Shown piece after piece: positions 1,839-24,146 of a stretch of DNA of 29,956 bases (within the stretch, counting starts at the first letter, position 1; every line of letters starts with the position of its first letter). This DNA is from an uncultured bacterium (GTDB taxonomy: Bacteria; Abyssobacteria; SURF-5), in contig CAZEBC010000026.1 in the NCBI GenBank assembly GCA_964510165.1, forward strand, positions 1 through 29,956, given 5' to 3'. Both the position numbers and the translations under genes were made by a program. Below the pieces are notes generated by a model that saw only the letters and a list, made by a program, of their open reading frames with translations, was not told the origin of the DNA and made no database searches.

Positions 1839-2354
1839 ATGAGGATCATGGGCGTTGACCCCGGCCTCACCGCGACCGGTTACGGAATCATCGAGGTCTC
1901 AGGCAGACGGCCTTCCCTCATCGAGGCCGGAGTGCTGCGAAGCCGTGACACCGACCCTCTGGAAACGAAGCTTCTTGATATTCATCGCGGAATCTGCGAG
2001 GTAATCCGCGAGTTCATGCCCGCCATCGTAGTAGTCGAGGAACTGTACAGCACGTATACTCATCCGCGGACCGCAATACTCATGGGACACGCGCGCGGCA
2101 TCATTTATCTGGCGGCAGCCGACCGAGGCATACCCGTGGTGAGCTATGCGTCCACGCGCATCAAGAACTCGCTCACCGGTCACGGCAGGGCGAGCAAGGA
2201 ACAGGTTCAAAAGATGATCCAGCACGTTTTCGGGCTTCACCGGGCACCGCACCCGCCGGACGTTGCGGATGCGCTCGCGGTGGCACTGTGTCATCACAAT
2301 GTGGTCATGCACGAGAATGGCCCGCTTGGCATCACGGGAACGAGGCGGAGATGA
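1839..2354 (+). CDS. ruvC: Holliday junction resolvase RuvC
   Basis: IMGVDPGLTATGYG, VVEE, HARG, GHGRASKEQV, DVADALAVALCH. Confidence 0.97.
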   Translation: MRIMGVDPGLTATGYGIIEVSGRRPSLIEAGVLRSRDTDPLETKLLDIHRGICEVIREFMPAIVVVEELYSTYTHPRTAILMGHARGIIYLAAADRGIPVVSYASTRIKNSLTGHGRASKEQVQKMIQHVFGLHRAPHPPDVADALAVALCHHNVVMHENGPLGITGTRRR

Positions 2355-2983
2355 TATCCAGGATAACCGGCACGTTGATCCAAGTGCGAGAAGACAGGGT
2401 GACGGTCGAGCACAACGGAATCGCATACGACCTGCTTGTTCCGAGCGGCAGCATTCACCGGCTGCGGGGGTTGCGCGGCAAAGAGGTCACTCTCTACACG
2501 TTTCACTATCTGGAGGGAGGCATGGGAGTCTCCAACCCGATCCCGCGTCTCGCCGGATTCACGAACGAGATAGACCGCGAGTTTTTCGAGAAGCTGATCA
2601 CGGTGCAGGGCATGGGCATCAAGGGCGCGCTGAAGGCGCTCTCGGCGCCGGTGCAATCGATCGCGCGCGCCATCGAGAGCAAAGACGTGAGCGCGCTCGT
2701 CTCGCTGCCGGGCATCGGCAGGCGCACCGCCGAGAAGATAATCGCCGAACTCAACGGCAAGCTCGCCAAGTTCGCGCTCATCCGGGCGGACGAGGAGATT
2801 CGCGCTCCTGTCCGCGAGCCCGACTTCAAGGAAGAGGTCATTGACGTGCTCCTGCAACTGGGCTATTCGAGCGGCGAATCGGAGATATTGCTCCGGCGGG
2901 CGCTCTCCACGCACGCCAACGTGGAGACTGCCGAGGACCTCATCAGGGAGATTTTCAAGCAGCAGCGCGAAACGGGCGCGTGA
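2351..2983 (+). CDS. ruvA: Holliday junction branch migration protein RuvA
   Basis: MISRITG OB-fold start at ATG 2351 (SD GGAG, ATGA overlap with the ruvC stop), HhH motifs VQGMGIKGA and LPGIGRRTAEKII, C-terminal LLQLGY. Confidence 0.96.
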   Translation: MISRITGTLIQVREDRVTVEHNGIAYDLLVPSGSIHRLRGLRGKEVTLYTFHYLEGGMGVSNPIPRLAGFTNEIDREFFEKLITVQGMGIKGALKALSAPVQSIARAIESKDVSALVSLPGIGRRTAEKIIAELNGKLAKFALIRADEEIRAPVREPDFKEEVIDVLLQLGYSSGESEILLRRALSTHANVETAEDLIREIFKQQRETGA

Positions 2984-3103
2984 GGCAGAGTGGAAGCAGG
3001 GCAACGGCGTAGGCGCAACCAAAGAACTGGGAAGCAACCGCGGATTGCACAGATTTCACGGACCTTGAAGGGGCGCGCTCAGGCGTGGGGACCGTCCCCA
3101 TCG

Positions 3104-3158
3104 TGGATTCCCCGGTCAAGCCGGGGAATGACAAAAAGAAGAAGCCGGGAATGACAAA
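3104..3158. repeat. REP-like palindrome (minus strand GTCATTCCCCGGCTTGACCGGGGAATCCA) plus partial tandem half-copy
   Basis: 3104-3132 ATTCCCCGG-TCAAG-CCGGGGAAT; AAGCCGGGAATGACAAA repeated at 3142-3158; same family as 25749-25775. Confidence 0.75.
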
Positions 3159-3187
3159 TCGAAGAGGCTGAGGCCAAAAGCGAAGTC

Positions 3188-4213
3188 ATGACACGCGAAC
3201 GCATAGTGGATGGGAGGCCGATATCGTCGGCGGACGAGACGTTCAGTTGGAGCCTGCGCCCGAAGCGGCTCTCCGAGTACATCGGCCAGAAGACTGTGGT
3301 GGAGAAACTCTCGATCTCGATCCAGGCGTCGAAGGCGCGGGGTGAGCCGCATGAGCACGTGCTCTTCTACGGCCCGCCCGGCCTGGGCAAGACCACGCTC
3401 GCGAGCATCATCGCGAATGAGATGGAGACGAACCTCGTGGCCACGTCGGGCCCGGCGCTCGAGCGGACGGGAGACCTGATGGGGCTTCTCACCAACCTCG
3501 AGCACGGCGATGTGCTGTTCATTGATGAGATTCACCGCCTGTCGCGCGTCATCGAGGAGTTCATCTATCCGGCGATGGAGGATTTCCAGGTGGACTTCCT
3601 CGTTGACAAGGGCGCGTTCGCGAAGAGCATCAAGGTGCAGCTCAAGCGGTTCACCTTGGTCGGGGCGACGACGCGGGCGGGCTTCCTCACGGCCCCGTTC
3701 CGCGAGCGGTTCGGCATTTACCATTATCTGGATTTCTATCCGCCCGATGAGATCGCGCAGATTATCGAGCGCTCGGCGAGGATACTCGGAATAGAAGTCG
3801 AGCAGACTGCGGTGGAGCAGGTGGCCCGGCGGTCGCGGGGCACTCCGCGCGTTGCGAACCGGCTGCTGAGGCGGGTGCGCGATTTCGCCGAGGTGAGGCA
3901 CGACGGGCGGGTGAGCGAACACATAGCCGTGGAAGCGCTCGAACTCGAGGGTGTGGACTCGATCGGCATGGATGACCTGGACAGGAAATATCTCAGAACT
4001 ATCATCGAGGGATATGGCGGCGGGCCGGTCGGCATCACCGCGATTGCGGCGACATTGAACGAGGAGACCGACACACTCGAGGATATGGTGGAACCATATC
4101 TGCTCAAGATAGGGTTCCTCAATCGGACGCGCCAGGGGAGGGTGGCCAGCGCGCGCGCGTTTGCGCACCTCGGCTATAAGCGCGGCAGGTCGGGGCAGGT
4201 TGAGTTGTTCTGA
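3188..4213 (+). CDS. ruvB: Holliday junction branch migration ATPase RuvB
   Basis: [12 protein letters not shown], Walker [10 protein letters not shown], Walker [34 protein letters not shown]. Confidence 0.98.
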
Positions 4214-4242
4214 GCGCCTCGGCTCAACTCACAAGGGATTCC

Positions 4243-4794
4243 ATGAAACTCCTGCTTCACATGTGCTGTGGACCGTGCGCGACGCATCCGGTCGCCTCGC
4301 TGCGGGAGGCCGGTCATGAGGTCCACGGTTTTTTTTACAACCCGAACATCCACCCGCTGGCCGAGTTCAGGTTGCGGCTCGAGTCGCTCCGGAAACTGCT
4401 GGCCGCCGAACGCATTGATGCGACCGTCCATGAGGAATACGACATCGAGGAGTATTTCAGGCGGGTCTCCTTCAGGGAATCGAATCGCTGCGCCGCATGT
4501 TATCACTTGCGGCTCGAGAAGGCGGCGCGAGAGGCGACCGACCGGGGCTTCGATGCATTCACCACGACGCTGCTGGTGAGTCCATACCAGAAGCACGACC
4601 TTATCCGTGAGATCGGCCAGAGCGTCGGCCAGGAGCGCGGCGTCGAATTTTATTATGAGGATTTTAGGCCGGGCTGGCCGCAGACACGCCAAATGTCGGT
4701 CCGGCTGGAGCTATATCGTCAAAAGTATTGCGGCTGCATCTACAGCGAGCGGGAGCGTTTCCTGGCCGGGGAGACGAGCCGCCGCAAGAACTGA
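4243..4794 (+). CDS. queH: Epoxyqueuosine reductase QueH (DUF208)
   Basis: LLLHMCCGPC, FYNPNIHP, RCAACY, TTLLVSPYQ, YRQKYCGCIYS; adjacent to queA. Confidence 0.93.
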   Translation: MKLLLHMCCGPCATHPVASLREAGHEVHGFFYNPNIHPLAEFRLRLESLRKLLAAERIDATVHEEYDIEEYFRRVSFRESNRCAACYHLRLEKAAREATDRGFDAFTTTLLVSPYQKHDLIREIGQSVGQERGVEFYYEDFRPGWPQTRQMSVRLELYRQKYCGCIYSERERFLAGETSRRKN

Positions 4795-4802
4795 CATTTC
4801 CC

Positions 4803-5837
4803 ATGCTCACGCTTTCCGATTTCGATTATGAACTTCCGACAGAACTGATTGCGCAGTATCCGACCGAGCGCAGGGGGCACTCGCGGCTGATGGTGGTGGA
4901 ACGGGCGAGCGGCGCGATCAGGACCGGCGTCTTTGACGACATCATGGGATATCTCGAGAGCGGCGACGCGGTCGTGCTCAACGACGTCAAGGTGTTCCCC
5001 GCGCGGCTGAGGGCCATCAAGACCGACACAGGGGCCAAGATCGAGATACTTCTGCTTCACGAGATCAGGAAGGGCGTGTGGGAGGCGATGGTGCGGCCGG
5101 GCAGGCGCGTGAGCGTGGGAACGAAGCTTGTCATCGAGGGCGCCCGGCAGGCTGACACCGTCGAGGTCATCGGCAATCACGGCCTGACGAAGACTCTCCA
5201 GTTCGAAGTTGAAGACGTGAGGCGGCTGTGTTGGCGCGTGGGCGAGATACCGCTGCCGCCGTATATCAAGCGAGAGGCGGAGCCCGCCGACCTCGAACGC
5301 TACCAGACGGTGTTCGCAAGGACGGAGGGCGCCATTGCGGCGCCGACGGCGGGACTTCATTTCACCGCCGATATCATTCAGGCGCTCCGCGACAAGGGGG
5401 TGCTCCTGGAGTTCGTCACGCTGAATATCGGGCTTGGCACCTTCCAGCAGCTTGAGCATGAGGAACTCGCGATGAACCGGCTTCTGCCCGAGCAGTACTA
5501 CGTAACCGCCAAGACGGCCAGACGCCTGAATGAGGTGCGTCGAAAGAAGCATAAAGTGCTCTCCGTGGGCACCACCACGATGCGCGTGCTCGAGACCACA
5601 ACCACGGAGCAGGGCGAGTTCAAGGCCGGTGAGGGACTGGCTGACATATTCATCTACCCCGGCTACAGGTTCCACTCGGCTGACGCGCTCCTCACCAATT
5701 TCCATCTGCCGCGAAGCTCGCTGCTGCTGCTGGCGTGCGCGTATGGCGGGCGCGACCTCATCATGCGCGCATACGAGACTGCCGTCAAGGAACGATTCCG
5801 CTTTTACAGCTACGGCGACGCGATGCTTATCATCTGA
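4803..5837 (+). CDS. queA: tRNA preQ1(34) SAM ribosyltransferase-isomerase QueA
   Basis: FDYELPTELIAQYP, PLPPYIKR, YQTVFA, AAPTAGLHF, TNFHLPRS, RFYSYGDAM; start taken at ATG 4803. Confidence 0.97.
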   Translation: MLTLSDFDYELPTELIAQYPTERRGHSRLMVVERASGAIRTGVFDDIMGYLESGDAVVLNDVKVFPARLRAIKTDTGAKIEILLLHEIRKGVWEAMVRPGRRVSVGTKLVIEGARQADTVEVIGNHGLTKTLQFEVEDVRRLCWRVGEIPLPPYIKREAEPADLERYQTVFARTEGAIAAPTAGLHFTADIIQALRDKGVLLEFVTLNIGLGTFQQLEHEELAMNRLLPEQYYVTAKTARRLNEVRRKKHKVLSVGTTTMRVLETTTTEQGEFKAGEGLADIFIYPGYRFHSADALLTNFHLPRSSLLLLACAYGGRDLIMRAYETAVKERFRFYSYGDAMLII

Positions 5838-5881
5838 GCCCAGATAGTCCGGGCGCTCCCCCGATTTGTTCAAGGAAGCAC

Positions 5882-6676
5882 TCATTCCCCTTTGAAATCT
5901 GGCGGGCGTTTCTCGAAGAAGGCGCTGATGCCTTCAAGGGCGTCGGCGGACTTGATGAGGCGGGACTGCGTGGAGGCGACCTCGTCGAGCGGGGAGGAGG
6001 CGTTGATGAGGCGCTTGGCGGCGGCCATCGCGAGCGGCGCGCGCGAGGAGAGTAGGCCGGCGAGTTCTTTCAGGGACTCTTCGAGCGATTCCCGTGCGAC
6101 CACTCGATTGACCATGCCGAGGGTCAGCGCATCGTCGGCTGTCACGAGTTCGCCGGTCAGGATCAATTCCTTGGTTTTCGCGACCCCGATGAGTTTCGGG
6201 AGGCGGGTGGTGGCGCCGAGCGCGGGCACGATGCCGATCTTGACATCCGAAAGCCCCAGCTTGACGCCACGGGTGGCGATGCGGAAATCGCACGCCAGCG
6301 CAAGCTGAAGCCCCGCGCCGACCGCGTGGCCGTTGATTGCGGCGATGGTCGGCATGGGGAGCGCTTCCACCATATCGAGGACGCTTTGCGCCTGCCTGAT
6401 GCCGTTGGCGAGGGCATCACCTTCAGCATCGGAATGATACTGGCTGATGTTCGTGAGGTCCGCGCCCGAACAGAACGCGCGGCCCGCTCCGGTGAAGATT
6501 GCGACGCGAACGTCCTTGAGTTGAGAGGCGCGAGTGACGGCTTGCGCCAGGTCGCGAAACATCTCGGCGTTGAATGCATTGAGCTTGTCGGGGCGATTGA
6601 GCGTGATCGTGAGAACGGAGCCTTCCCGGCGCCAGATGAGCGTTTCGAATTGTGGCGAGTCGGTCATAAGGTTCAT
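5882..6676 (-). CDS. Enoyl-CoA hydratase/isomerase (crotonase) family protein
   Basis: TLNRPDKLNA, GRAFCSGADL, AAINGHAVGAGLQLALACDFRIA, FFEKRPPDFKG; ATG 6676 overlaps the upstream stop (ATGA). Confidence 0.93.
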   Translation of the reverse strand: MNLMTDSPQFETLIWRREGSVLTITLNRPDKLNAFNAEMFRDLAQAVTRASQLKDVRVAIFTGAGRAFCSGADLTNISQYHSDAEGDALANGIRQAQSVLDMVEALPMPTIAAINGHAVGAGLQLALACDFRIATRGVKLGLSDVKIGIVPALGATTRLPKLIGVAKTKELILTGELVTADDALTLGMVNRVVARESLEESLKELAGLLSSRAPLAMAAAKRLINASSPLDEVASTQSRLIKSADALEGISAFFEKRPPDFKGE

Positions 6677-7317
6677 TTCCCCGTTGCGTGGTGGTCGGCG
6701 ACGGCGTCCTTGATGGCCTCGATCAAATACTTCTCGTGCGCGTAGAAGAAGTGGTCGGTTCGCGGGACGACCTGGAGCGATTTGGGCTCGGGCAGTTGCT
6801 TGTAGATTCTCTGGAGTTCGTCGCGGTCGCAGAACTGGTCGCGTTCGCCCACGATGACATGGCGCGCCCGCTCCTCTTTGTCTTCGAGCAAGGATGAAAA
6901 GTCGAACATCGAGGTCGGCGGCGCGATGAGGATCAAGTGCGAAACGATGGCGTCGCCCTGGAGCGAGTGAGAGGCGACCCACGAGCCAAACGAGTAACCG
7001 GCGAGCACGATCGGCTCCGACTCCGGCGCCTGCTCCAGCAAAAAGCGTATCGCTGCGCGCACGTCCTCGACCTCCGCCAGGCCCTCGCCGTAGCGGCCCT
7101 CGCTTCGGCCAACCCCGCGGAAATTGAAGCGAAGCGTCGAGTGCCCCGTCTGCTGGAGCGCCTGCACCGCGGCATCCACAACATTGTTATCCATCGTCCC
7201 GCCATACGCCGGATGCGGATGGCAGATGACGGCGCCTGGAGCAGTAGGTGACACGTGGGAATATCTCCCCTCAAGTGTTATCGAGCCGGCCTTGAAGAAT
7301 ACGGCGTGTTCCGACAT
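6673..7317 (-). CDS. Alpha/beta hydrolase (COG2945-like)
   Basis: HPHPAYGGTMDNNVV, RFNFRGVG, nucleophile elbow GYSFG, Asp in GERDQF, His in DHFF. Confidence 0.92.
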   Translation of the reverse strand: MSEHAVFFKAGSITLEGRYSHVSPTAPGAVICHPHPAYGGTMDNNVVDAAVQALQQTGHSTLRFNFRGVGRSEGRYGEGLAEVEDVRAAIRFLLEQAPESEPIVLAGYSFGSWVASHSLQGDAIVSHLILIAPPTSMFDFSSLLEDKEERARHVIVGERDQFCDRDELQRIYKQLPEPKSLQVVPRTDHFFYAHEKYLIEAIKDAVADHHATGK

Positions 7318-7357
7318 CTATGTTCCTTCTGGTTGAAGTTAATGAAAAGATCGCCTG

Positions 7358-7388
7358 CCCTCTCTCCCAAGGAGAGGGTGAGGGTGAG
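7358..7388 (-). repeat. REP-like CCCTCACCCTCTCC...GGGAGAGAGGG palindromic element
   Basis: Minus strand reads CTCACCCTCACCCTCTCCTTGGGAGAGAGGG; related element at 13271-13318. Confidence 0.6.
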
Positions 7389-7412
7389 CACAAAAAAGGA
7401 TTCGGGAAAGCC

Positions 7413-7553
7413 TTACTTGAAGGTCTCGATCTTGTTGGGGAACGAGACGTACGGGCTTCCGCTCTCCTTCATCGCCACTGCGCACCGATACATTACGAAC
7501 AAGAATATCATGGAGAGCAGGAAGAATACAATTTTTTGCACCTTCGCCTTCAT
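7413..7553 (-). CDS. Small single-TM protein, 46 aa (MKAKVQKIVFFLLSMIFLFVMYRCAVAMKESGSPYVSFPNKIETFK)
   Basis: Translated by hand (below the ORF-track cutoff): basic N-terminus, ~15-aa hydrophobic stretch, G-rich SD-like run upstream, extended -10 about 40 nt upstream. Confidence 0.65.
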   Translation of the reverse strand: MKAKVQKIVFFLLSMIFLFVMYRCAVAMKESGSPYVSFPNKIETFK

Positions 7554-7594
7554 GTGCGCCCCCGAAGGGAACCTGGAAGAGCTTCTGTATTAAT

Positions 7595-7603
7595 ATTTTA
7601 CCA
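7595..7603 (-). promoter_or_regulatory. Extended -10 promoter element for the small protein/hydrolase/crotonase unit
   Basis: Minus strand TGGTAAAAT (TGn-TAAAAT); -35 weak (TTCTCT). Confidence 0.5.
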
Positions 7604-7694
7604 TATAAGCCTGAAAAAGAGAATAGACATTACGCGCAAGAGAGCCGGGAATGGGATGGGCCGCGCCCATTTTTGCACTTGGCAAGACACGCCC

Positions 7695-7724
7695 TTGACA
7701 ACTCTCTCCGAATTTGTTTAAGTT
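7695..7724 (+). promoter_or_regulatory. sigma70 promoter of the metal-uptake operon
   Basis: TTGACA (7695-7700), 18 nt spacer, TAAGTT (7719-7724), followed by palindrome GTTTGCAAAC (7725-7734). Confidence 0.6.
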
Positions 7725-7766
7725 GTTTGCAAACGATGTGATTGGTGAGGCGTTGACTATGGTTGT

Positions 7767-8090
7767 ATGGCGCGGGGGGGCGCTGTGAGAAGCGTTTCGC
7801 GCATGCTCAGGAATTGCGGTGACGCACGGCGGACCGCGATTGGCAGTCTCGTTCTGCTGGCCTTCGTGTGCGCGTTCGTCCTTAGCACGCTTCACCTTTC
7901 CGTTTCGCATGCTTTGCATAAGGCGGAACACTGCCCGCTATGCAGTTTCCACACACAGTTCTCGGCAGACATTCCGAGCATTGTTTCGATTGACTTCTTC
8001 CCGAGGGCCGACATCTGGTCCTCCGTCATTCTGAATCGGTACCATAGCCGTCTTTCAGTCATCACATCTCCCCGAGCGCCTCCCTTTTAG
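7767..8090 (+). CDS. DUF2946/CruR-like leader protein: TM segment, His/CxxC motif, C-terminal RAPP arrest motif
   Basis: Hydrophobic IGSLVLLAFVCAFVLSTL, then HLSVSHALHKAEHCPLC, ending SPRAPPF-stop. Start uncertain (7767 ATG, 7785 GTG, 7803 ATG). Confidence 0.75.
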   Translation: MARGGAVRSVSRMLRNCGDARRTAIGSLVLLAFVCAFVLSTLHLSVSHALHKAEHCPLCSFHTQFSADIPSIVSIDFFPRADIWSSVILNRYHSRLSVITSPRAPPF

Positions 8091-8187
8091 TCCTGCAATC
8101 CCATTCCGACCTGTCCTGCATGATTTTCGCGAGTTAAACAAGCGTCGGCGTCTCCCTATGCGCCTGCGCGCACGCGGGAGACTGATC

Positions 8188-8212
8188 GGGCGGGTGCGGG
8201 GGCCTGCCCTAC
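8188..8212 (-). repeat. GTAG-family REP-like hairpin
   Basis: Minus strand GTAGGGCAGGCCCCCGCACCCGCCC. Confidence 0.55.
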
Positions 8213-8228
8213 AATATGGGAGAGAGGC

Positions 8229-9599
8229 ATGAAAGTGGGCATAATTGTCTCTTTGTTCCTGGTCGCATTGCTCTGTTCGCCCGTTTGGGCGACTGGGGCG
8301 GAAACCGGCTCCGAAACGGAGTCGCTGAAGGTGCAGATACAGGAGCTGCGAAGCGCTCTTGAGCAATTCCAGCGGCAGCACAACGCGGAGGTCGAATCGC
8401 TCAAGCAACAGATTCGAGACCTTTCGGACGAGTTGGAAGAACAGCGCAGAATCGGCGCGGAAGAGCCGGTCGTTTACGAGGAGTTCTACGAGCCGACGCC
8501 GTCGGCATATCAAGCTTCGCCAATCGGGGCCGGGTTGGGGCAGTACTTCAACCCCGACATCTCGGTCATTGGCGACGCGCTCGGACAATATGCGAGCCAT
8601 GAGAACGAAGGCGACCGGCCGGATGATCAGTTCATCTTCCGGGAATTGGAGGTGAATTTCTCCGGAGTCCTTGATCCGTTCGCGCGCGCCGACTTTACGG
8701 CGGCCGTGCATGAGGAATTTCATGAACACGAGGCGGAGGAGCATGAACACACGTACGAGAGTCCCCGCGGCGAAGGCCATGAACACAACTTCGCAATTCA
8801 CATTGAGGAGGCGTATCTGACTGCGCTTGCGCTTCCCCACGGATTGCAGGCGCGCGCGGGGAGGATGCGCGAGCGGTTTGGAAAGGTAAACTCCACGCAC
8901 CTGCACGCGCTTCCCTGGGTTGATTATCCGCTCATAATCAAGAACTACCTCGGGGATGAAGGCTTGATGGCCGACGGCGCCGAACTGAGCTGGCTGGCGC
9001 CCACTCGGCATTACCTTGAATTGGTATATGCGGTCTTCAACAACGACAACGCTTCTTCGTTCGGAGGAGAGGAATTTGACGACTTCGTGCACCTGGCCCG
9101 CATGAAAAACCTGTTCGATATTTCAGACGCAACCACGCTCGAACTCGGCGGCAGCCTCGCAACCGGTCCCAACGACGACAGCCACGGAAGAAACCGCACT
9201 TGGCTGGAAGGGTTGGATGTGACCTTGAAATGGCGACCGCCCACCGAGGCGCTATATAGAGAACTCACCTGGCAGACGGAATTTCTGCTCTCTCAGAAGG
9301 AGCTTGAGGACCGGCAGGACCAGGATACGTGGGGCATGTATTCCTCGCTGGAGTACCAGTTCGCCCGGCGCTGGAGCGCGGCGCTCCGCTACGACTACTC
9401 GGAGTTTCCCGATTTCGAGTGCTTCCGCGAAAAAGGGTACTCCGGCTATCTGACGTTCGCCCAGAGCGAATTCGTGTTCTGGCGGTTCGGCTACATGTTC
9501 GTTGACCGCAATCTTGCGGACCCGGTGGAAGAAGACGAACATCTCGTCTGGCTTCAACTGAATTTCGGCCTCGGGCCGCACCGGACGCATGAATACTAA
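8229..9599 (+). CDS. Outer-membrane beta-barrel (porin-like) with His-rich loop, associated with metal ABC transporter
   Basis: Signal peptide, coiled coil, FNPDISVIGD, ELEVNFSGVLDPF, His-rich HEEFHEHEAEEHEH...GHEH, IEEAY, C-terminal QLNFGLGPHRTHEY; SD GGGAGAGAGG. Confidence 0.8.
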   Translation: MKVGIIVSLFLVALLCSPVWATGAETGSETESLKVQIQELRSALEQFQRQHNAEVESLKQQIRDLSDELEEQRRIGAEEPVVYEEFYEPTPSAYQASPIGAGLGQYFNPDISVIGDALGQYASHENEGDRPDDQFIFRELEVNFSGVLDPFARADFTAAVHEEFHEHEAEEHEHTYESPRGEGHEHNFAIHIEEAYLTALALPHGLQARAGRMRERFGKVNSTHLHALPWVDYPLIIKNYLGDEGLMADGAELSWLAPTRHYLELVYAVFNNDNASSFGGEEFDDFVHLARMKNLFDISDATTLELGGSLATGPNDDSHGRNRTWLEGLDVTLKWRPPTEALYRELTWQTEFLLSQKELEDRQDQDTWGMYSSLEYQFARRWSAALRYDYSEFPDFECFREKGYSGYLTFAQSEFVFWRFGYMFVDRNLADPVEEDEHLVWLQLNFGLGPHRTHEY

Positions 9600-9625: not shown

Positions 9626-10693
9626 ATGAAATTGAAACGAAGATTGCGGGCCACTCTCATATGGGCGTTCCTGGGGACATTCCTATTGTTGGGCTCCGGC
9701 GAAGGCGCGCAGAAACTCAACGTGCTCACCACGCATACGGTGCTGAAATCTATTGCGGAGGAAGTGGGCGGCGAGCACGTGTCGGTAGCGTGCCTGGCGA
9801 CCGGAAGGGAAGACCCTCACGCAATAGAAGCGAAACCGAGCTACATGGTGAGCGCTCGCAAGGCGGACCTGTTTGTAAAGATCGGCATGGATCTGGAAAT
9901 CGGGTATGAGCAGCTTGTGATAGACGGCTCGCGCAACTACAAGATCAGACTTGGGCAGCCGGGCTATCTTGACGCGTCGCTCAACGTGCTCAGGCTCGAG
10001 GTCCCGACGATAAAGGTTGACCGGTCAATGGGGGACGTTCACCCGCTCGGAAACCCGCACTACTGGCTGGACCCATACAACGCGCGAATCGTGGCGCGGT
10101 CCGTAGCGGACCGGCTTGGCGAGCTTGATCCTGCTCACGCCGCCGATTACGAGGCCCGCTGCGCCGACTTTGAGAGGCGCCTCGATACGGCGATGTTTGG
10201 CGAGCGCCTCGTCGAACGCATTGGAGGGGACCGACTGTGGTCACTGGAATTGGCCGGACGATTGGACGCGCACCTGCGGGATAACGGCCTTGAAGGCGAG
10301 GCGGGCGGATGGTATCAGCAGGCGCAGTCCCTCAGAGGGTTACGCCTGGTCACGTACCATCGGAGTTGGGTCTATTTTGCCAAGAGGTTCGGGTTGAACA
10401 TTGTCGGTGAGCTCGAGCCGAAGCCCGGCATCCCGCCCAGCCCCGGTCATCTGCGTTACATTGTCGCCACGGCGCGAAGCGCGAAGGCGACGGTGATCCT
10501 GATGGAGCCCTATTATAGCCCGAGGGCTGCCGAATTCGTCGCCGAGAAGATCGAAGGGCGTGTGGTCGAAGCGGCCAATGCGGTGGAAGGGCAACAGGGC
10601 GTGACCGATTATTTCTTGCTAATGGAAAACGTTATCGGGCGACTGAAAGAGGCAACCGCGATTCCCGAAGCGAAGCAGGCGTTTGTCCAGTAG
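9626..10693 (+). CDS. Cluster A-I metal ABC substrate-binding protein (ZnuA/AdcA-like)
   Basis: EDPHAIE, DVHPLGNPHYWLDP, TYHRSWVYF, ELEPKPGIPP; N-terminal signal. Confidence 0.92.
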   Translation: MKLKRRLRATLIWAFLGTFLLLGSGEGAQKLNVLTTHTVLKSIAEEVGGEHVSVACLATGREDPHAIEAKPSYMVSARKADLFVKIGMDLEIGYEQLVIDGSRNYKIRLGQPGYLDASLNVLRLEVPTIKVDRSMGDVHPLGNPHYWLDPYNARIVARSVADRLGELDPAHAADYEARCADFERRLDTAMFGERLVERIGGDRLWSLELAGRLDAHLRDNGLEGEAGGWYQQAQSLRGLRLVTYHRSWVYFAKRFGLNIVGELEPKPGIPPSPGHLRYIVATARSAKATVILMEPYYSPRAAEFVAEKIEGRVVEAANAVEGQQGVTDYFLLMENVIGRLKEATAIPEAKQAFVQ

Positions 10694-10731: not shown

Positions 10732-10755
10732 GGCAAGCTTTTTGAGGTGAACCAC

Positions 10756-11634
10756 ATGAGCGACACGATGCTTTTTATGGCGGCGCCGTTCGCCGCGTGT
10801 TTGATCCTGACGGGAATACACTGTTATCTCGGGCTTCACGTGGTGAGTCGGGGGGTCATCTTCGTCGACCTCGCGCTCGCGCAGGTGGCCGCGCTCGGGA
10901 CCACTCTGGCCCTGCTGCTCGGCTATGAACTGAAGAGCCCGCAGGCTTATTACTGCTCGCTCGGCTTCACCTTTGTCGGGGCCGCCGTGTTTGCGCTCGG
11001 CCGGTTTCGAGAGGAAAAGGTTCCGCAGGAGGCGATCATCGGAATCGTATACGCGGTCTGCTCGGCGGCGGCTATCCTTGTGCTCGACCGCGCGCCTCAC
11101 GGACACGAGGCGATTACGGCCATGCTGGTAGGCAATATCCTGTACGTTACATGGCCGGGCATAGCGAAGACAGTCGTGATCTATGGGCTGGTCGGCGCGG
11201 TCCACTACCTGCTTCGGCGCAAGTTCCTATTGATCTCCCTGGATATCAAAGAGGCATGGAATCAGGGATTGTCCGTAAGATGGTGGGATTTTGTCTTCTA
11301 TGTCACCTTCGGCTTTGTCGTCACCAGTTCCGTGCAGATCGCGGGCGTGCTGCTGGTGTTCAGCTATCTGGTCGTTCCGGCGGTGTGCGCGATCCTGTTC
11401 GCCGAACGCATTTCAAGCCGTCTGGTGATCGGATGGACCCTCGGATTCCTCGCGAGCGCTTTCGGGATGATCGCCTCTGTCAGATGGGACTTACCGACCG
11501 GCGCCTCCGTGGTCGCCGCGTTCGGGGTCGTGCTGATAGCGTGCGCCGTTCTTGCGTGGATGACACCCTCCCGCGCGTACCCACGACAGCGTGTTGCGGC
11601 CGCCACCGAGATGCGACACGATCACCAAGCTTGA
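10756..11634 (+). CDS. Metal ABC transporter permease (ZnuB/ABC-3 family)
   Basis: GLHVVSRGVIFVDLALAQVAALG, EAIIGIVY, GVLLVFSYLVVPA, DLPTGASVV; SD GAGGTG before ATG 10756. Confidence 0.92.
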   Translation: MSDTMLFMAAPFAACLILTGIHCYLGLHVVSRGVIFVDLALAQVAALGTTLALLLGYELKSPQAYYCSLGFTFVGAAVFALGRFREEKVPQEAIIGIVYAVCSAAAILVLDRAPHGHEAITAMLVGNILYVTWPGIAKTVVIYGLVGAVHYLLRRKFLLISLDIKEAWNQGLSVRWWDFVFYVTFGFVVTSSVQIAGVLLVFSYLVVPAVCAILFAERISSRLVIGWTLGFLASAFGMIASVRWDLPTGASVVAAFGVVLIACAVLAWMTPSRAYPRQRVAAATEMRHDHQA

Positions 11635-11674: not shown

Positions 11675-11724
11675 GTTGCAATCGTGCAACTGATGTCGCG
11701 TTGCAATCGTTGCATACATGCAAC
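11675..11724. promoter_or_regulatory. Twin palindromes GTTGCA-N4-TGCAAC, putative bEBP upstream activating sequences
   Basis: 11675-11690 GTTGCAATCGTGCAAC and 11709-11724 GTTGCATACATGCAAC, 34 bp apart, ~100-150 bp upstream of a -24/-12 motif. Confidence 0.7.
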
Positions 11725-11825
11725 TTTCCTCGAACGGTGCGAAGGATTCCTTCCTGGCAGCCGTTTCTTCTTATCTTATTGCATCCGCATATGTTACACA
11801 GTGAAAGCTTCGCCCCAAAATCGAG

Positions 11826-11840
11826 TGGCATGATATGTGC
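11826..11840 (+). promoter_or_regulatory. sigma54 -24/-12 promoter of the activator gene
   Basis: TGGCATGATATGTGC = GG-N10-GC. Confidence 0.65.
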
Positions 11841-11901
11841 CTTACCAGACTCCATGCAACAAACCAGGTTCACATCGTTTTTCACCGGAAATGGGAGCAT
11901 C

Positions 11902-13242
11902 ATGCTAAAGAATCACTCTCTTGAACAAAAGGATATCTCGACGATAATCTTCGACAGCATCAGCGAAGGGGTGTTCACGACGGACCATGACTGCCGCATC
12001 ACCTCGTTCAATCGAGCGGCGGAGACGATATCGGGATTCAGCCGGGAAGAGGCCGTCGGCAAGTACTGTTTCGACATATTCCGGACCGATTTGTGCCAGA
12101 CGGGCTGCGCGCTGCGCAACACGCTGCAAAACGGAAAACCGATCTCGAACGTCAGGGTTACCATCATCACCCGCGATGGCCGAAAGGTCCCCATCAGCGT
12201 CAGCACGACGCTGCTTCGCGATGAAGACAAGCAATGCCTCGGCGCGGTAGAGTTCTTTCGCGATCTCTCCGAGCTGGAAGACCTTCAAAATCAGGTGTCG
12301 AAATTGAACCGTTTCGAGAATCTCGTGAGCTGCAACGAAAAGATGCAGCGCATCTTCGAGTTGCTGCCGGAGATCGCCGAGTCCGAGTGCAACGTGCTGA
12401 TCCAGGGACCAAGCGGGTCGGGCAAGGAACTCTTGGCGCAGGCGCTCCACAACCTGAGCCCCCGCAAGCAGAACGCATATATCCGCATCAATTGCGCCGC
12501 GCTTCCCGAGACGTTGCTCGAGTCGGAGCTGTTCGGCTACGTGAGGGGCGCATTTACGGATGCGAAGCGGGACAAGCCGGGCATGTTCTATCTGGCGCAG
12601 GGCGGCACGCTTCTGTTGGACGAGATCGGCGATATGCCTCTCGCGCTTCAGGTGAAGCTACTGAGGGTTCTCAACAACGGTGAATATCAGCCGCTGGGTT
12701 CGACGCGGATGTTGCAGACCGATGCGCGCATCCTCACCTCCTCAAACCAGGACATCAAGCGGATGGTCGAGCAGGGATTGTTCCGGGAGGACCTCTATTA
12801 TCGCATCAACGTGATCAATATTCAGATACCGCCGTTGCGGGAGCGACTCGAGGATTTGCCGCTGCTGATCGAGCATTTCGTGGAGAAGTTCCGTGTCAGG
12901 CGCAAGAAGGACATACGCGGGGTGTCCAATGACGTCCTCAACCTTCTGAGACAATACGATTTCCCGGGCAACGTGAGGGAACTCGAGAACGCGATCGAGC
13001 ATGCCTTCGTCATCTGCCGAAAGAACGTTATCGAGGTCGAGCATCTGCCTGAAAGATTGCTGGAAGCGGCAAGACGCAATGGCGAACGTTCATCGCGGCC
13101 CGTGTATGGAGGGAGTTCCGAGGAGTCCATCATTCGGGAGGCGCTCGAGCGAAACAAGGGGAACCGCGTCAAGACTGCGGAAGAACTTGGGATGCACCGC
13201 TCGACGCTGTGGCGGAAGATGGAAAGATACGGGATGGGGTGA
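11902..13242 (+). CDS. sigma54-dependent activator, PAS-AAA+-Fis HTH, OrpR-like
   Basis: PAS with CFDIFRTDLCQTGC (C-X8-C-X3-C), Walker A GPSGSGKE, ESELFG, GAFTDA, LLDEIGD, FREDLYYR, FPGNVRELEN, HTH LGMHRSTLWRK; SD GGGAG before ATG 11902. Confidence 0.92.
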   Translation: MLKNHSLEQKDISTIIFDSISEGVFTTDHDCRITSFNRAAETISGFSREEAVGKYCFDIFRTDLCQTGCALRNTLQNGKPISNVRVTIITRDGRKVPISVSTTLLRDEDKQCLGAVEFFRDLSELEDLQNQVSKLNRFENLVSCNEKMQRIFELLPEIAESECNVLIQGPSGSGKELLAQALHNLSPRKQNAYIRINCAALPETLLESELFGYVRGAFTDAKRDKPGMFYLAQGGTLLLDEIGDMPLALQVKLLRVLNNGEYQPLGSTRMLQTDARILTSSNQDIKRMVEQGLFREDLYYRINVINIQIPPLRERLEDLPLLIEHFVEKFRVRRKKDIRGVSNDVLNLLRQYDFPGNVRELENAIEHAFVICRKNVIEVEHLPERLLEAARRNGERSSRPVYGGSSEESIIREALERNKGNRVKTAEELGMHRSTLWRKMERYGMG

Positions 13243-15303: not shown

Positions 15304-15385
15304 CAAAACTCTCCAACGGAAGTGATGTGGAAAGCGCGCCACCAGCGTCGCGCTCTCAATGAGAAATTAAGTGAGACCGCCATTG

Positions 15386-16024
15386 ATGAAACCCGAAAAG
15401 AACTCAAACGGCCAGAAATATTTCGGAACCGTGGTCGGCTTCTTTTCGTTCGGACTCGTGCTTTTCCTCCTGTTGGGATGGTTCTTGTTACCCGGTTTGA
15501 GCTACGTCAAGAGCACGCAGCCGGTGAATTACAATCCCCCGCTTCACGTGGAGAGGCTCGGCATCACCTGCGACACATGCCACTTCTTCCATGAGGACGG
15601 GAGCTGGGCCGGAATCCCCACGCTTGAAACATGCATTGATTGTCACGAAAATACGATTGGCGACTCGTCTGAAGAAAAGAAGTTCGTCGAGAATTACGTG
15701 AAGGAAAATCGTGAGCCGCAGTGGGCGCTTTACATCAAGCAGCCCGAGTGCGTGTCGTTCTCGCATTCCTCGCACGTGCGGATGGCGAAGATTGCGTGTG
15801 AAACGTGTCATGGCCCGCAAGGCCATTCGGACGCCGCCGAGTATCTCGCGAACCGCATCACCAAGTATGGTTATGTGGTGTATGATCCGCGCGTTCCGCT
15901 GAATGCCTTCACCATCATGAGCGAGAAGGGCAGGAACGTGTGGGGCACGATGCGGATGGACGAATGCGCGGCATGTCACAGGGCGCGCGGAACGAGCACG
16001 GCCTGTTTCATCTGTCACAAATAG
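15386..16024 (+). CDS. qrcA: Menaquinone reductase multiheme cytochrome c subunit QrcA (5 CxxCH)
   Basis: N-terminal TM; CDTCH, CIDCH, CETCH, CAACH, CFICH; QPECVSFSHSSH; first of a qrcABCD-type set. Alternative start GTG 15371. Confidence 0.88.
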   Translation: MKPEKNSNGQKYFGTVVGFFSFGLVLFLLLGWFLLPGLSYVKSTQPVNYNPPLHVERLGITCDTCHFFHEDGSWAGIPTLETCIDCHENTIGDSSEEKKFVENYVKENREPQWALYIKQPECVSFSHSSHVRMAKIACETCHGPQGHSDAAEYLANRITKYGYVVYDPRVPLNAFTIMSEKGRNVWGTMRMDECAACHRARGTSTACFICHK

Positions 16025-16036
16025 GGACTCGCTGGA

Positions 16037-18430
16037 ATGTCTTGGTTTAAGGAAAAAGCAACCGTAAAAGTTGACCGGAGGACGTTCGTCAAAGGGATGA
16101 CCTTTGCGGGAGGAGCGGCTCTCGGCCTGATGCTCTCGCCGACGCCCTGGTACCTCATGCGAGACGCCGCGTTCTGGACACAGAACTGGGCGTGGCTGCC
16201 GACGCCTTCTCCGGGCGCGCCCTCGTTCGAGGACGCCGTCTGCGGGCTATGCGAGGCCGGATGCGGCATCCGCGTGAGAAAGGTGGACGATCGCCTCGTC
16301 AGGATCGACGGCAACAAGAACCACCCCGTCAACCGAGGCTCGGTCTGTCCGCTCGGGGTCGCTTCGCTCCAGTTGTTGTACAGTCCGGCTCGCATCAAGA
16401 CTCCGATGAAACGAGTGGACGGTTCCTGGCGGCCCGTCTCGTGGGAAATCGCCATAAGAGAGATCAGCCAGCAAATACAAAGCCTCAGGGCGACCGGGCA
16501 ATCCCATGCGATCGCATGCATCACCAACCATCGTAACAGCGCGATAAACCGGATGCTCGAACGGCTGCTCCGCGCTGTCGGGTCCCCCAATTTCGTGCCC
16601 ATGAACAACGGTGTGGACGCCCAGAATATCGTTCACCAACTCATGACCGGCGGGAGCACTGCCGCATATGATATCGAAAACGCCCGCTGCATCCTGAGTT
16701 TCGGATGCAGCCTCTTTGAGGGATGGGGAGCGCCCGGCCGGATGTATCACGCACAGGCGACGTGGCTCAAGAGGCCGAAAGAGTCGCAGGTTGAGGTGAT
16801 TCAGATCGAGCCTAATCTCTCGACCACCGCGAACAAAGCGTCCCAATGGGCGCCAATCACGCCGGGGACCGAGGCCGCGCTCGCCCTTGCAATCGCTCAC
16901 GTGTTGATCAGAGACGAACTCTACAACAAGGCTTTTGTGAAAAAGCACTGTTTCGGCTTCGAGGATTGGACGGACTCGTCCGGCAAGACACACAAGGGCT
17001 TTGCATCCGAGGTGCTCGCGCGGTATTCGCCGCAATCCGTCGAACTCATCACGAAAGTGCCGGCGAGTGAGACGGAAGATATCGCGCGCAGGTTCGCCTC
17101 GAATGGGCCTTCGCTTGCAATCGGCGGCGCAGGTCGGGGAGAAAGGTTTGCCGACCTGTACGCGCTGATGGCCGTCAACAGCCTGAATGCGCTGGTCGGC
17201 AATATCGGTCAGGTCGGCGGCCTTTTCACTCAGGCGGCGGCGCCAGTCAGTCCGCTTCCGCCCGTCACGATGGACGAAGAATCGGCGCGCGGCAACGCGA
17301 CGGCCCGCTGCGACGGAGCGGGAAGCGGGCGGTATCCATTCAGCCCGTCTCTGCCACACAATCTCGATCCGCAAAAAATCAAAGTCTTGTTCATCCATGA
17401 GGCAAACCCGTACTATGCGCTTCGTGACCGAAAATCGGCGGATGGTATTTTCGAGAAAATCCCCTATGTCGTAAGCCTGGCGTCCCACATGGATGAGAGC
17501 GCACAGCGAGCGAACCTGGTCCTCCCTGTGCCAACCCCATTCGAGAGGTGGGACGACCTTGCCGGTGTCACCGGAGTGCCGTATGCGACGTACGGCGTGA
17601 ACCGTCCTCTGATAACCCCCTTGCACGATGCGAGGAACGCAGGCGACATCGCGATAATGATCGCGCGTTCAATGGGCGGCGCGATCTCGGACTCTTTCCC
17701 GTGGAACAACACCGCTGAGGTCGTGGCGGCGCGGGCCAGAGGACTGTACGAATCCGATCGGGGCATGATAAATGAGCCCGTTGACATCGTCTCCTCCGAA
17801 GGGAAGCCCCCGCGGTCGCTCCAGGAAAAATACCCGACATTTTCGACGTTCTGGAGCAGCCTGCTTGCGAACGGCTGCTGGTTCGACCCGGCATTCGAGC
17901 GTGGCAAGTCATCCTTCAGCACGCCGAGCAAGAAGTTCGAGTTCTTCAGCCAGCGACTTCACAAAGAGTTCGGTTTCAGCGACGACCTGAAATGCATGCC
18001 CCACTACATGAAGCCAGCCGCAAAGCCCATAGGCTTTGACCTGACCATTATGCCGGAGGAACTGGTGGCGATGGCGCACGACGGTCTCGGCACGCCTCCC
18101 TTGCTCATCAAGCAACTCAGCGACACGGTGCTCCGCGAGAGCGAGCTATTCGTTCGGATCAATCCGATAACCGCCATGCATCACGGCGTCAAGGACGGGG
18201 ACAAGGTGATCCTGGAATCATCCCGTGGCAAAGTGAGCGTGCGGGTGCACACCTTTGCGGGAGTGCATGAAGGAATAGTGCTGATTCCCCTGGACTTCGG
18301 GCATACAGGGTACGACCGCTACCTGCAAAACAAGGGCGTGAACGCGCGCCAGTTGCTCGAAGTCGCGTATGACGACATCACGGGGTTGGCCTCTTGTTGC
18401 GGTACTCCGGGAAAGATCAGAAAAGCCTAA
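16037..18430 (+). CDS. qrcB: Menaquinone reductase molybdopterin-oxidoreductase-like subunit QrcB
   Basis: Tat RRTFVK, SPTPWYLMRDAAFWTQNW, CGLCEAGC...CPLG, C-terminal MopB-CT-like RINP...DFGH. Confidence 0.88.
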   Translation: MSWFKEKATVKVDRRTFVKGMTFAGGAALGLMLSPTPWYLMRDAAFWTQNWAWLPTPSPGAPSFEDAVCGLCEAGCGIRVRKVDDRLVRIDGNKNHPVNRGSVCPLGVASLQLLYSPARIKTPMKRVDGSWRPVSWEIAIREISQQIQSLRATGQSHAIACITNHRNSAINRMLERLLRAVGSPNFVPMNNGVDAQNIVHQLMTGGSTAAYDIENARCILSFGCSLFEGWGAPGRMYHAQATWLKRPKESQVEVIQIEPNLSTTANKASQWAPITPGTEAALALAIAHVLIRDELYNKAFVKKHCFGFEDWTDSSGKTHKGFASEVLARYSPQSVELITKVPASETEDIARRFASNGPSLAIGGAGRGERFADLYALMAVNSLNALVGNIGQVGGLFTQAAAPVSPLPPVTMDEESARGNATARCDGAGSGRYPFSPSLPHNLDPQKIKVLFIHEANPYYALRDRKSADGIFEKIPYVVSLASHMDESAQRANLVLPVPTPFERWDDLAGVTGVPYATYGVNRPLITPLHDARNAGDIAIMIARSMGGAISDSFPWNNTAEVVAARARGLYESDRGMINEPVDIVSSEGKPPRSLQEKYPTFSTFWSSLLANGCWFDPAFERGKSSFSTPSKKFEFFSQRLHKEFGFSDDLKCMPHYMKPAAKPIGFDLTIMPEELVAMAHDGLGTPPLLIKQLSDTVLRESELFVRINPITAMHHGVKDGDKVILESSRGKVSVRVHTFAGVHEGIVLIPLDFGHTGYDRYLQNKGVNARQLLEVAYDDITGLASCCGTPGKIRKA

Positions 18431-18435
18431 GCACG

Positions 18436-19185
18436 ATGAACACGAGCGTGGAAAAGCAAACACTTGTCCGGTACGGCATGGTCATAGATTTGGATACATG
18501 CACTGGCTGCGGCAACTGCGCCGTCGCCTGCCACATGGAAAACAATGTCCCATTCCGCGTTGACGAGAGCGACAAGTCGCGCAACATCGAATGGCTACGC
18601 ATTTACAGGGTCGACAACGGCGCCGAGTATCCGCATGCGCGCATGGCGTATTTCCCCAGGCCTTGCATGCAGTGCGACCACCATACCCCCTGCGTTTCCG
18701 TCTGCCCGGCGAGCGCCACGAACTATGACGAGCTTACCGGAGTGGTGGATCAAATAAACACCCGCTGCATAGGATGCCGTTATTGCATGGCGGCGTGTCC
18801 GTATATGGTCCGCTGTTTCAACTGGTGGGACCCCGTTTGGCCGAAGGAAATGGAGAGGCACCTGAACCCTGACGTTGCCGTGCGCATGCGGGGCGTCGTC
18901 GAGAAGTGCACCTTCTGTTCGCATCGCTATCTGAAAGCCAAGAACAAGGCACACAACGAGGGCCGCAACTATCTCAAGGAAGACGAATATGTGCCCGCGT
19001 GCGTCGAGGCCTGCCCCGTTGGGGCAATGCATTTCGGCGATCTCAGCAATCCCGAACATGAGGTCGCACGGTTGATCAAAAGCCCGCGCGCATTCCGGCT
19101 GCTTGAGAAACTGCACACCGAGCCGAAGGTCTATTACATGAGTTCGCAGGAATGGGTCAGGAAACTCGCGGACAATCCTGCATGA
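18436..19185 (+). CDS. qrcC: Menaquinone reductase iron-sulfur subunit QrcC
   Basis: YGMVIDLDTCTGCGNCAVAC, PCMQC...CVSVCP, CIGCRYCMAACP, RMRGVVEKCTFC, PACVEACP. Confidence 0.9.
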   Translation: MNTSVEKQTLVRYGMVIDLDTCTGCGNCAVACHMENNVPFRVDESDKSRNIEWLRIYRVDNGAEYPHARMAYFPRPCMQCDHHTPCVSVCPASATNYDELTGVVDQINTRCIGCRYCMAACPYMVRCFNWWDPVWPKEMERHLNPDVAVRMRGVVEKCTFCSHRYLKAKNKAHNEGRNYLKEDEYVPACVEACPVGAMHFGDLSNPEHEVARLIKSPRAFRLLEKLHTEPKVYYMSSQEWVRKLADNPA

Positions 19186-19203
19186 ACGATGTGCCCGTGC
19201 GGC

Positions 19204-19243
19204 GGGCGGCCACTCGTGGCGAGCCACGCAGGGCCGCCCCTAC
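19204..19243 (-). repeat. GTAG-family REP-like hairpin between qrcC and qrcD
   Basis: Minus strand GTAGGGGCGGCCCTGCGTGGCTCGCCACGAGTGGCCGCCC; outer stem GGGCGGCC/GGCCGCCC, inner CGTGGC/GCCACG. Confidence 0.7.
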
Positions 19244-19272
19244 ACCTAATCTGAAAGGAAGAGGCCGATCGG

Positions 19273-20502: not shown

Positions 20503-20523
20503 AACCGGGGAGGTCGAGGCGCC

Positions 20524-20736
20524 ATGCTTCCGACAACGTTTGAATTCAGATGGGACGCGGGCCACATGATCTTCTTTGGCGTGTTCTACGCCGTTATCGC
20601 GGTCGTGATGACCAGCCTCTTTTTCGTCGTCGCGAAATCCGTGACCGATGTGTATCGGACATTGAGGTCCGAGCCGGAGGCCGGCCCAACCGAGAACAAG
20701 CGGCCTCAGCGAGCCGGGGTCAACCCCGAAACCTAA
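20524..20736 (+). CDS. Small single-TM protein downstream of qrcD
   Basis: 70 aa, FRWDAGHMIFFG then ~22 hydrophobic residues; SD GAGG; tight spacing inside the operon. Confidence 0.75.
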   Translation: MLPTTFEFRWDAGHMIFFGVFYAVIAVVMTSLFFVVAKSVTDVYRTLRSEPEAGPTENKRPQRAGVNPET

Positions 20737-20750
20737 AGGATACCAATAGT

Positions 20751-22061: not shown

Positions 22062-22081
22062 GTGAGTGAGGAGAGCCGAAC

Positions 22082-22729: not shown

Positions 22730-22759
22730 ACCGGAGCCTTGAAATGGAGGTTGTGTCGC

Positions 22760-24142: not shown

Positions 24143-24146
24143 AGGG

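Follow-up and report, generated by a model that had tools for sequence, protein, structure and literature searches.

The 29,956-nucleotide contig CAZEBC010000026.1 of an uncultured bacterium of the Abyssobacteria (assembly GCA_964510165.1; the whole stretch is referred to below as the window) carries on its forward strand, at positions 7767 to 8090, an open reading frame (ORF) of 107 codons beginning with ATG, located directly upstream of genes for an outer-membrane porin, a ZnuA-family metal-binding protein, and an ABC-3 family permease. We conclude, with a probability of roughly 0.7, that the product of this CruR/DUF2946-like ORF is a leader peptide with a regulatory role, of the CruR/DUF2946 kind, whose metal-dependent release from ribosomal arrest would shut the uptake operon off, a reading drawn from sequence and from analogy with studied systems. 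The observations on which it is built are the ORF itself, its motifs and their spacing, their conservation, the synteny of the locus, a C-rich and G-poor stretch of the transcript (a C>G bubble), and what the downstream genes encode.

Features of the leader were read from the sequence and the ORF list and then confirmed by script. Specifically, i) hydropathy, charge bias, and a structural model predict an N-in membrane anchor at residues 24-42 (7836..7892), the best 19-residue hydrophobic stretch of the protein (Kyte-Doolittle mean 2.47), preceded by an N-terminus with 6 Lys or Arg versus 1 Asp or Glu; ii) residues 43-59 (7893..7943) form a His/Cys cluster (H43, H48, H51, H55, C56, and C59) that closes with the CxxC motif CPLC (C56/C59, nucleotides 7932-7943); iii) 43 residues lie between C59 and R103; and iv) the arrest-type motif RAPP occupies residues 103-106 (8073..8084), with an invariant P102 before it and a single Phe after it, followed by the TAG at 8088-8090. 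The first-pass annotation of this DNA had described just such an ORF, with a transmembrane segment, a His-rich cluster, a CxxC, and RAPP one residue before the stop, and all of these hold, the spacer it gave as about 40 residues counting out at 43. Among the 266 stop-to-stop segments of at least 60 residues in the six frames of the window, R[AG]PP is found anywhere in 3 and within the last 15 residues in 1, and the composite CxxC-(40-48)-R[AG]PP near the segment end also in 1; both of these single segments are the leader ORF. An AlphaFold2 (AF2) model, with an overall predicted local distance difference test (pLDDT) score of 57.9, is confident for residues 21-40 alone (pLDDT 86-93) and predicts residues 68-107 to be disordered (pLDDT <50); with an overall score this low, the model was set aside as a guide to metal-site geometry. 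The leader ORF is genuine and lies at the place described.

Few leader homologs were found. A full phmmer scan of 1.84 billion representative sequences (E <= 0.001) returned four matches, two of which, P0003 (106 residues) and P0004 (121 residues), we accept as homologs. A genome scan with the porin yielded one usable orthologous locus (L001), in Candidatus Abyssobacteria bacterium SURF_17, where the porin is 66% identical, a leader ORF stands at the same place, and porin, binding protein, and permease follow in the same order; a second hit (L002) covered 24 residues at the end of a contig and was left aside. Our leader alignment comprises four sequences, those of the window, SURF_17, P0003, and P0004, and a word-indexed search with their profile found P0003 and P0004 again and no others. 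The other two phmmer matches, P0001 (682 residues) and P0002 (460 residues), were set aside as long, internally repetitive proteins that match over short stretches and have no C-terminal motif; they match stretches of the leader 8 and 6 times, respectively (CPFC...LDFF-like and H-rich stretches), and are probably translated tandem repeats. The SURF_17 leader copy was absent from the matches of three protein searches, and a word-indexed protein search with the window leader found no match, not even the leader itself, which therefore is seemingly not annotated. NCBIfam has no family for the leader, and a tblastn search against plasmids gave one irrelevant match at E 8.

Hydropathy and charge bias, used here in place of a dedicated topology predictor, indicate an export signal or an N-in/C-out transmembrane segment in all four leaders. 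Besides the start Met and four scattered residues, T41, H43, H51, C56, C59, P102, R103, P105, and P106 are invariant; the homologs thereby keep the anchor, two His, the CxxC, a spacer of 43-45 residues, and a terminal (D/S)PR(A/G)PP, and the rest drifts. The distance from CxxC to R[AG]PP is 43 residues in the window and 44, 44, and 45 in the three homologs, and the motif itself is RAPP in three leaders and RGPP in the fourth. It is followed by 1, 4, 2, and 8 residues in the four sequences, a variability suggesting that the motif matters rather than its distance to the stop codon. Between the window and SURF_17, identity is 66% for the porin, 66% for the binding protein, and 80% for the permease orthologs but 39% over 72 residues for the leader; such fast drift around fixed motifs and fixed spacing is the pattern that a regulatory leader peptide should show. 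Loss of CxxC and RAPP from orthologous loci had been named beforehand as the result that would tell against the initial proposal, and both motifs are kept in the SURF_17 locus.

The best Pfam match of the leader is DUF2946 (PF11162; E 0.0055, 17.9 bits), in an alignment of leader residues 47-106 that covers profile positions 55-117 of 117 and runs to the model's very end. Roy et al. (2022; PMC9426467) named this family CruR and described for it a CXXC motif together with a RAPP at the C-terminal end, the two separated by about 45 residues (1-2 residues either way), an export signal in >95% of members, placement as the operon's first gene, and an extended spacer before the next one. The leader is likewise the first gene of its operon, as read from gene order, with a spacer to the porin gene of 138 nucleotides in the window and 118 in SURF_17, and it shows every one of these sequence traits, the exception being the formal threshold of the hidden Markov model. 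We regard the leader as a divergent, largely expected member of the known CXXC-RAPP class.

In both loci, the strongest C>G bubble of the plus strand lies at the 3′ end of the leader, and in the window it extends into the 138-nucleotide spacer. When scored over 60-nucleotide segments in 10-nucleotide steps, C/G is at least 2.2 for all starts from 8020 to 8080, outlining a rut-like (Rho utilization) bubble at 8020..8139 on the plus strand. Its peak at 8052-8111 (C-G = 19, C/G 3.71) straddles the RAPP codons and the stop codon, and its value is matched by a fraction of 0.0001 of the 29,897 plus-strand segments, namely those with starts within 8048-8060 and one at 25920. The segment at 3791-3850 of the SURF_17 locus, in the 3′ part of the leader, is the unique C>G maximum among 9,315. 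The rut site of Bordetella cruR is described as a C>G bubble running from the unstructured 3′ part of cruR into the spacer (PMC9426467). Two hairpins are predicted in the window spacer (8091..8228, plus strand), at 8150-8182 and 8188-8209, and no U-tract follows either of them; the spacer also contains the porin Shine-Dalgarno (SD) sequence GGGAGAGAGG (8218-8227). A scan for intrinsic terminators reported one weak site, inside the ORF (7961-7978), a number of sites lower than the mean for shuffled sequences, and no terminator with a U-tract; Rfam at permissive thresholds found no family and no riboswitch in 7300-8400.

That the ribosome arrests, that metal releases it, that Rho takes part, which way the regulation runs, and which metal is sensed are all inferred by analogy with CruR. 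Arrest of CruR at RAPP keeps Rho off the rut site, and copper sensed through the CXXC relieves the arrest, upon which transcription stops before the transporter gene (PMC9426467); in vitro, CruR stalls the ribosome when its two Pro codons occupy the P and A sites (PMC12992588), and RAPP/RGPP arrest is itself documented (PMC10951233, PMC12992588). On this model, the nascent window leader would be anchored N-in through its single hydrophobic segment, with a putative His2Cys2 cluster (H43, H51, C56, and C59) just past the membrane segment; 43 residues later the ribosome would arrest at RAPP, its P site on the first Pro codon and its A site on the second, and would cover approximately 8064-8094, inside the C-rich, G-poor stretch near the 3′ end of the ORF. 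As long as metal is scarce, the arrest would persist, Rho would be denied access, and the porin, the ZnuA-type binding protein, and the permease would be expressed; metal bound to the nascent His/Cys cluster would release the arrest, translation would terminate, the rut-like stretch would be bared, and transcription would then end in the 138-nucleotide spacer, turning uptake off. We favor this CruR logic (metal present, arrest relieved, operon off) because the downstream operon is one of uptake. The site of metal sensing, which the first-pass annotation put in the periplasm, has been placed in the cytoplasm by Roy et al. (PMC9426467) and in the periplasm by Ozturk et al.

The downstream genes had been read in the first pass as porin, substrate-binding protein, and permease, and a porin fold, PF01297, and PF00950 were indeed found there. 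The porin (8229..9599, plus strand) has a signal peptide and, in its AF2 model (pLDDT 81.7), a 50-residue N-terminal helix and a 16-strand barrel; a signal peptide with a barrel of 16 or 18 strands is the mark of an outer-membrane porin. All of its top Foldseek matches in the PDB are porins, general and specific ones (VhChiP, OmpM1, Omp32, OprP/OprO, and OprB; best E 2.5e-12), none of its 353 homologs has a Pfam domain for the barrel, NCBIfam has no family for it, and its nearest named relatives are from Candidatus Abyssubacteria. A 67%-identical homolog (P0010) is named "Zinc-regulated TonB-dependent outer membrane receptor" in UniRef, a name we rejected as wrong with regard to fold; its TonB part is mistaken because the barrel is that of a 16-strand porin and there is no plug. 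Between strands 3 and 4, porin residues 157-191 (8697-8801) form a loop rich in His, Glu, and Asp (8 His, 10 Asp or Glu, no Cys or Met), which would be extracellular if the N-terminus is periplasmic. At least 5 His are present in this region in 27 of the 53 aligned sequences (the window porin and 52 homologs); the loop is expanded to 35-42 residues with 6-10 His in porins of the Abyssubacteria group, short (HxHxxxWHxH-like) in many other homologs, and absent in distant ones.

The second gene (9626..10693, plus strand) encodes a metal-binding protein of the ZnuA family (cluster A-I; PF01297, 168 bits, E 3.6e-49) that retains His at the DPH, (D/N)PH, and (F/Y)H motifs of ZnuA (its DPH, NPHYW, and YHRSW positions); we take the His of these motifs to be the Zn ligands of ZnuA. 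Its best solved relative is Synechocystis ZnuA (2ov1/1pq4), it has no His-rich loop, and in NCBIfam AztC, MntC, and ZnuA all score far below their cut-offs. The third gene (10747..11634, plus strand) encodes the ABC-3 family permease (PF00950, 112.9 bits, E 2.5e-32).

Several points weigh against regarding the leader as a CruR-like sensor. Conservation is read from four sequences, one of which comes with its neighboring genes. The PF11162 score of 17.9 bits is below the gathering threshold of 23.7, and PF11162 matches at E <= 1 in two of the four subfamily members; the relation to DUF2946 proposed in the first pass stands as a pattern of CXXC, RAPP, spacing, and operon position and falls short as a formal profile match. 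No convincing SD or promoter precedes ATG 7767. RAPP arrest depends in some systems on upstream residues and on the species of ribosome. That Rho acts in this way in this lineage is assumed by analogy, and the C-richness of the bubble comes in part from Ser and Pro codons. No ABC ATPase was found among the 25 larger window ORFs scanned against Pfam (58 ORFs have at least 150 residues), nor any ATPase-like ORF among those read or scanned in the SURF_17 locus (2235-9374), so the importer is incomplete as seen. Finally, both characterized DUF2946 members, CruR and CutF, respond to copper and not to zinc.

Other explanations would give the same locus a different logic, or none. In CutF, the other studied DUF2946 member, metal induces stalling (10.1101/2025.02.05.636593), and the leader might work the same way, the stalled ribosome melting an mRNA structure that hides the porin ribosome-binding site so that metal turns the operon on at the level of translation. 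The Pro-Pro codons are in fact complementary to the G-rich porin SD in both loci (CCUCCC at 8079-8084 with 8218-8227 in the window; CCACCU at 3856-3864 with 3985-3992 in SURF_17), they pair in the partition function with a summed probability of 0.83-0.93 in SURF_17 and 0.18 in the window, and both minimum-energy folds pair bases just past the leader stop near the SD. However, CCN-CCN is complementary to any G-rich SD, and such pairing is therefore expected from composition alone; the SD is mostly paired (probability of being unpaired 0.20 in the window and 0.15 in SURF_17), and holding the footprint of the stalled ribosome open does not raise these values (0.15-0.17 and 0.12-0.15, respectively); accessibility is not below that of shuffled sequences, 72/100 and 51/100 of which are at or under the observed value; and the spacers fold no more stably than shuffles (z -0.35 in the window, +1.34 in SURF_17). 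Moreover, the motifs are CXXC (CPLC) and RAPP, with only two consecutive Pro, rather than the CXXXC and PPP of CutF, and metal-induced expression makes little sense for an uptake system. We therefore consider metal-induced unmasking of the SD improbable. Still less probable is a small membrane protein that is itself stable, such as a metal chaperone or an accessory transporter subunit, in which RAPP merely slows synthesis and regulates nothing: the good membrane anchor, the conserved metal-type His2Cys2 cluster, and the lack of other accessory genes in the operon would suit such a protein, but residues 68-107 are predicted to be disordered and are poorly conserved save for the terminal motif, the spacing of 43-45 residues to that motif and the C>G bubble would have no role, RAPP-like motifs are strongly excluded from ordinary proteins (PMC12992588), and CruR escaped detection as a stable protein (PMC9426467). 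Spurious ORFs are many in a window of 59% G+C, and this one is missing from the protein collection searched and has no clear SD or promoter; yet an accidental ORF in G+C-rich intergenic DNA, disfavored already, is scarcely credible when SURF_17 has the ORF in the same position with its frame, motifs, and spacing intact, when motifs and spacing recur in two independent database proteins, and when the composite pattern is confined to a single six-frame segment.

Returning to a CruR-like sensor, the metal is more likely Zn(II) than copper, with a little under half of the weight on zinc, three-tenths on copper, and a quarter on another divalent metal. Pointing to zinc are the ZnuA-type His positions of a binding protein whose best solved relative is ZnuA, a porin loop rich in His, Glu, and Asp and devoid of Cys and Met, and a sensor with two invariant His and two invariant Cys. 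Cu(I) sites, by comparison, usually use Met or Cys. The same device might nevertheless answer to copper, the operon importing copper or being shut by it and the ZnuA-like protein not being a zinc binder, which we hold to be possible but somewhat unlikely: both studied DUF2946 proteins sense copper through their Cys motif, DUF2946 genes cofit with a copper receptor in Pseudomonas (bioRxiv 10.1101/072470), and most of the contexts given by Roy et al. are copper-related (PMC9426467), but the binding protein retains the His motifs of Zn-specific ZnuA, the porin loop offers no Met or Cys, and in Caulobacter the czrCBA operon for Zn/Cd efflux, which bears a Zur box, begins with a DUF2946 gene (PMC4176598), so that the family is not tied to copper alone. 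None of these points against copper is a direct test. We propose tentatively, at somewhat less than even odds, that the leader is a nascent-chain sensor for zinc or another divalent metal other than copper, in which binding to the His2Cys2 cluster would release the RAPP arrest, possibly with ribosomes fed from an upstream mini-ORF described below. If true, this would be the first case in which an arrest peptide has been shown to respond to a metal besides copper, and the first in which one controls a ZnuA-type ABC (ATP-binding cassette) importer with its own His-loop porin.

Comparison with known systems places the leader closest to CruR. Like CruR (Bp2923) of Bordetella pertussis (PMC9426467), it stands first in an uptake operon as a small gene with an exported or anchored product, with a CXXC, about 45 residues, and RAPP near the C-terminus, a disordered C-terminal half, a long spacer (162 bp for CruR, 138 nucleotides here), and a C>G bubble that starts in the ORF's 3′ portion and extends into the spacer. 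It differs from CruR in its sub-threshold Pfam match, in a signal-anchor instead of a predicted signal peptide, in the two invariant His beside its CxxC, in the porin and ZnuA/ABC-3 genes downstream (a TonB-dependent transporter and a PepSY protein in the cruR-bfrG operon), in its host (an anaerobe of a candidate phylum rather than a proteobacterium), in being known from sequence alone, and in a ligand that is probably not copper. With CutF of Rhodobacter capsulatus it shares DUF2946 kinship, an exported nascent chain bearing a Cys motif, and, by analogy, control of the next gene through C-terminal Pro-based stalling; CutF, however, carries CXXXC and PPP and requires EF-P, and what it controls is a detoxifying oxidase, through the melting of a stem-loop that covers the ribosome-binding site (10.1101/2025.02.05.636593), whereas the leader has CXXC and RAPP and an uptake operon as its target, and the test of SD unmasking gave no support. 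ApdA/ApdP and SecM are likewise small leaders, secreted or in the membrane, whose C-terminus carries RAPP, or RAGP in the case of SecM (PMC10951233), but they monitor Sec/YidC machinery encoded downstream and are released by pulling force; our leader precedes porin and metal-uptake genes, not secA, secDF, or yidC, and has a conserved metal-type His/Cys cluster.

Fujiwara et al. (2025, EMBO J, PMC12992588) surveyed small RAPP/RGPP ORFs in 52,895 genomes and found them enriched upstream of genes for TonB receptors, YcnI, PCu(A)C, PepSY, and thioredoxin. Within their Fig. 4B source data, the "carbohydrate porin" downstream class has 54 RAPP versus 5 AAPP entries; the class is not discussed in the sections of the text covered here. 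Among 30 source-data rows read for RAPP leaders upstream of porins, 23 by our reading share the layout of our leader, and most have a His motif ahead of the CxxC, although those porins are of the OprB or OprO/OprP type and ours belongs to a family without a Pfam model. It follows that neither the leader-porin layout nor the His is new, and the extra His ligands that the first-pass annotation had singled out lose their special status. That annotation knew of no experimental description of the combination; the leader-porin layout is in print, and for the ZnuA/ABC-3 context i) a literature search pairing "arrest peptide" with "ZnuA" found no printed case; ii) the portions of the supplements of Roy et al. 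(PMC9426467) available to us have no ZnuA, ABC-3, or porin entry; and iii) the supplements of Fujiwara et al. (PMC12992588), as far as they were covered, have no ZnuA or substrate-binding entry. Nor does any row of the PMC12992588 data that matches motif strings of the subfamily show the subfamily architecture, among the matches listed (the first two places per string). The ZnuA/ABC-3 context and a plausible change of ligand are what may be new here.

We wish to emphasize that even a largely expected member of this class could be informative. The leader would extend CruR-like, arrest-based metal sensing to an uncultivated subsurface lineage and to an ABC uptake system of zinc type, and it offers a natural test of whether the device is specific for copper or a general sensor for thiophilic metals. 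Since gene callers miss such leaders, the regulation of many metal operons may go unannotated.

The start of the leader is ambiguous, with in-frame ATG 7767, GTG 7785, and ATG 7803. A scan for consensus promoters reported no sigma-70 site for the leader. By eye, TTGACA (7695-7700), a 17-nucleotide spacer, and TTAAGT (7718-7723) make up a possible sigma-70-type promoter at 7695..7723 on the plus strand, on which the scan was silent because the second hexamer breaks its rule; the matching place in SURF_17 has TTGACG, 18 nucleotides, and TATATA. No GG-N10-GC arrangement that would indicate a sigma-54 promoter was seen by eye near a conserved TTTGCAC block, one of the short blocks, with TCTCTNTCCGNATT and GCGTTGNCTNTG, common to window 7672-7760 and SURF_17 3410-3505. 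Between the putative -10 hexamer and the leader lies a perfect 10-bp palindrome, GTTTGCAAAC (7725-7734), without a counterpart in SURF_17; it could be an operator or could be chance.

An SD-like GGTGAGG (7744-7750) precedes an out-of-frame mini-ORF of 9 codons that runs from ATG 7759 to TGA 7786-7788 (the whole at 7744..7788, plus strand), and the TGA overlaps the in-frame GTG 7785 of the leader (GTGA). The layout at 3484-3532 of the SURF_17 locus is similar, with AAGGAG, a mini-ORF of 10-12 codons from GTG 3500 or TTG 3494, and a TGA that overlaps the in-frame ATG 3529 of the leader (ATGA at 3529). Such stop-start overlaps may reflect translational coupling between mini-ORF and leader or, with two loci only, chance.

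The surroundings of the operon differ between the two loci. Directly upstream of the SURF_17 leader, at 2235-3242, are a DUF364 gene ("putative heavy-metal chelation") and a zinc-ribbon gene (PF09723), whereas in the window this place is taken by opposite-strand genes for an alpha/beta hydrolase and an enoyl-CoA hydratase. After the permease, SURF_17 has a TonB-dependent receptor (Plug domain) and the window a PAS/sigma-54 activator (11701-13242). Farther downstream, window positions 15371-25706 hold a respiratory cluster typical of an anaerobe, with multiheme c3/c7-type cytochromes, a molybdopterin oxidoreductase accompanied by a 4Fe-4S subunit, and a pair bearing a nitrate-reductase-gamma-like domain and a CCG domain; the window's genes are those of an anaerobe, as had been supposed of the host from the outset.

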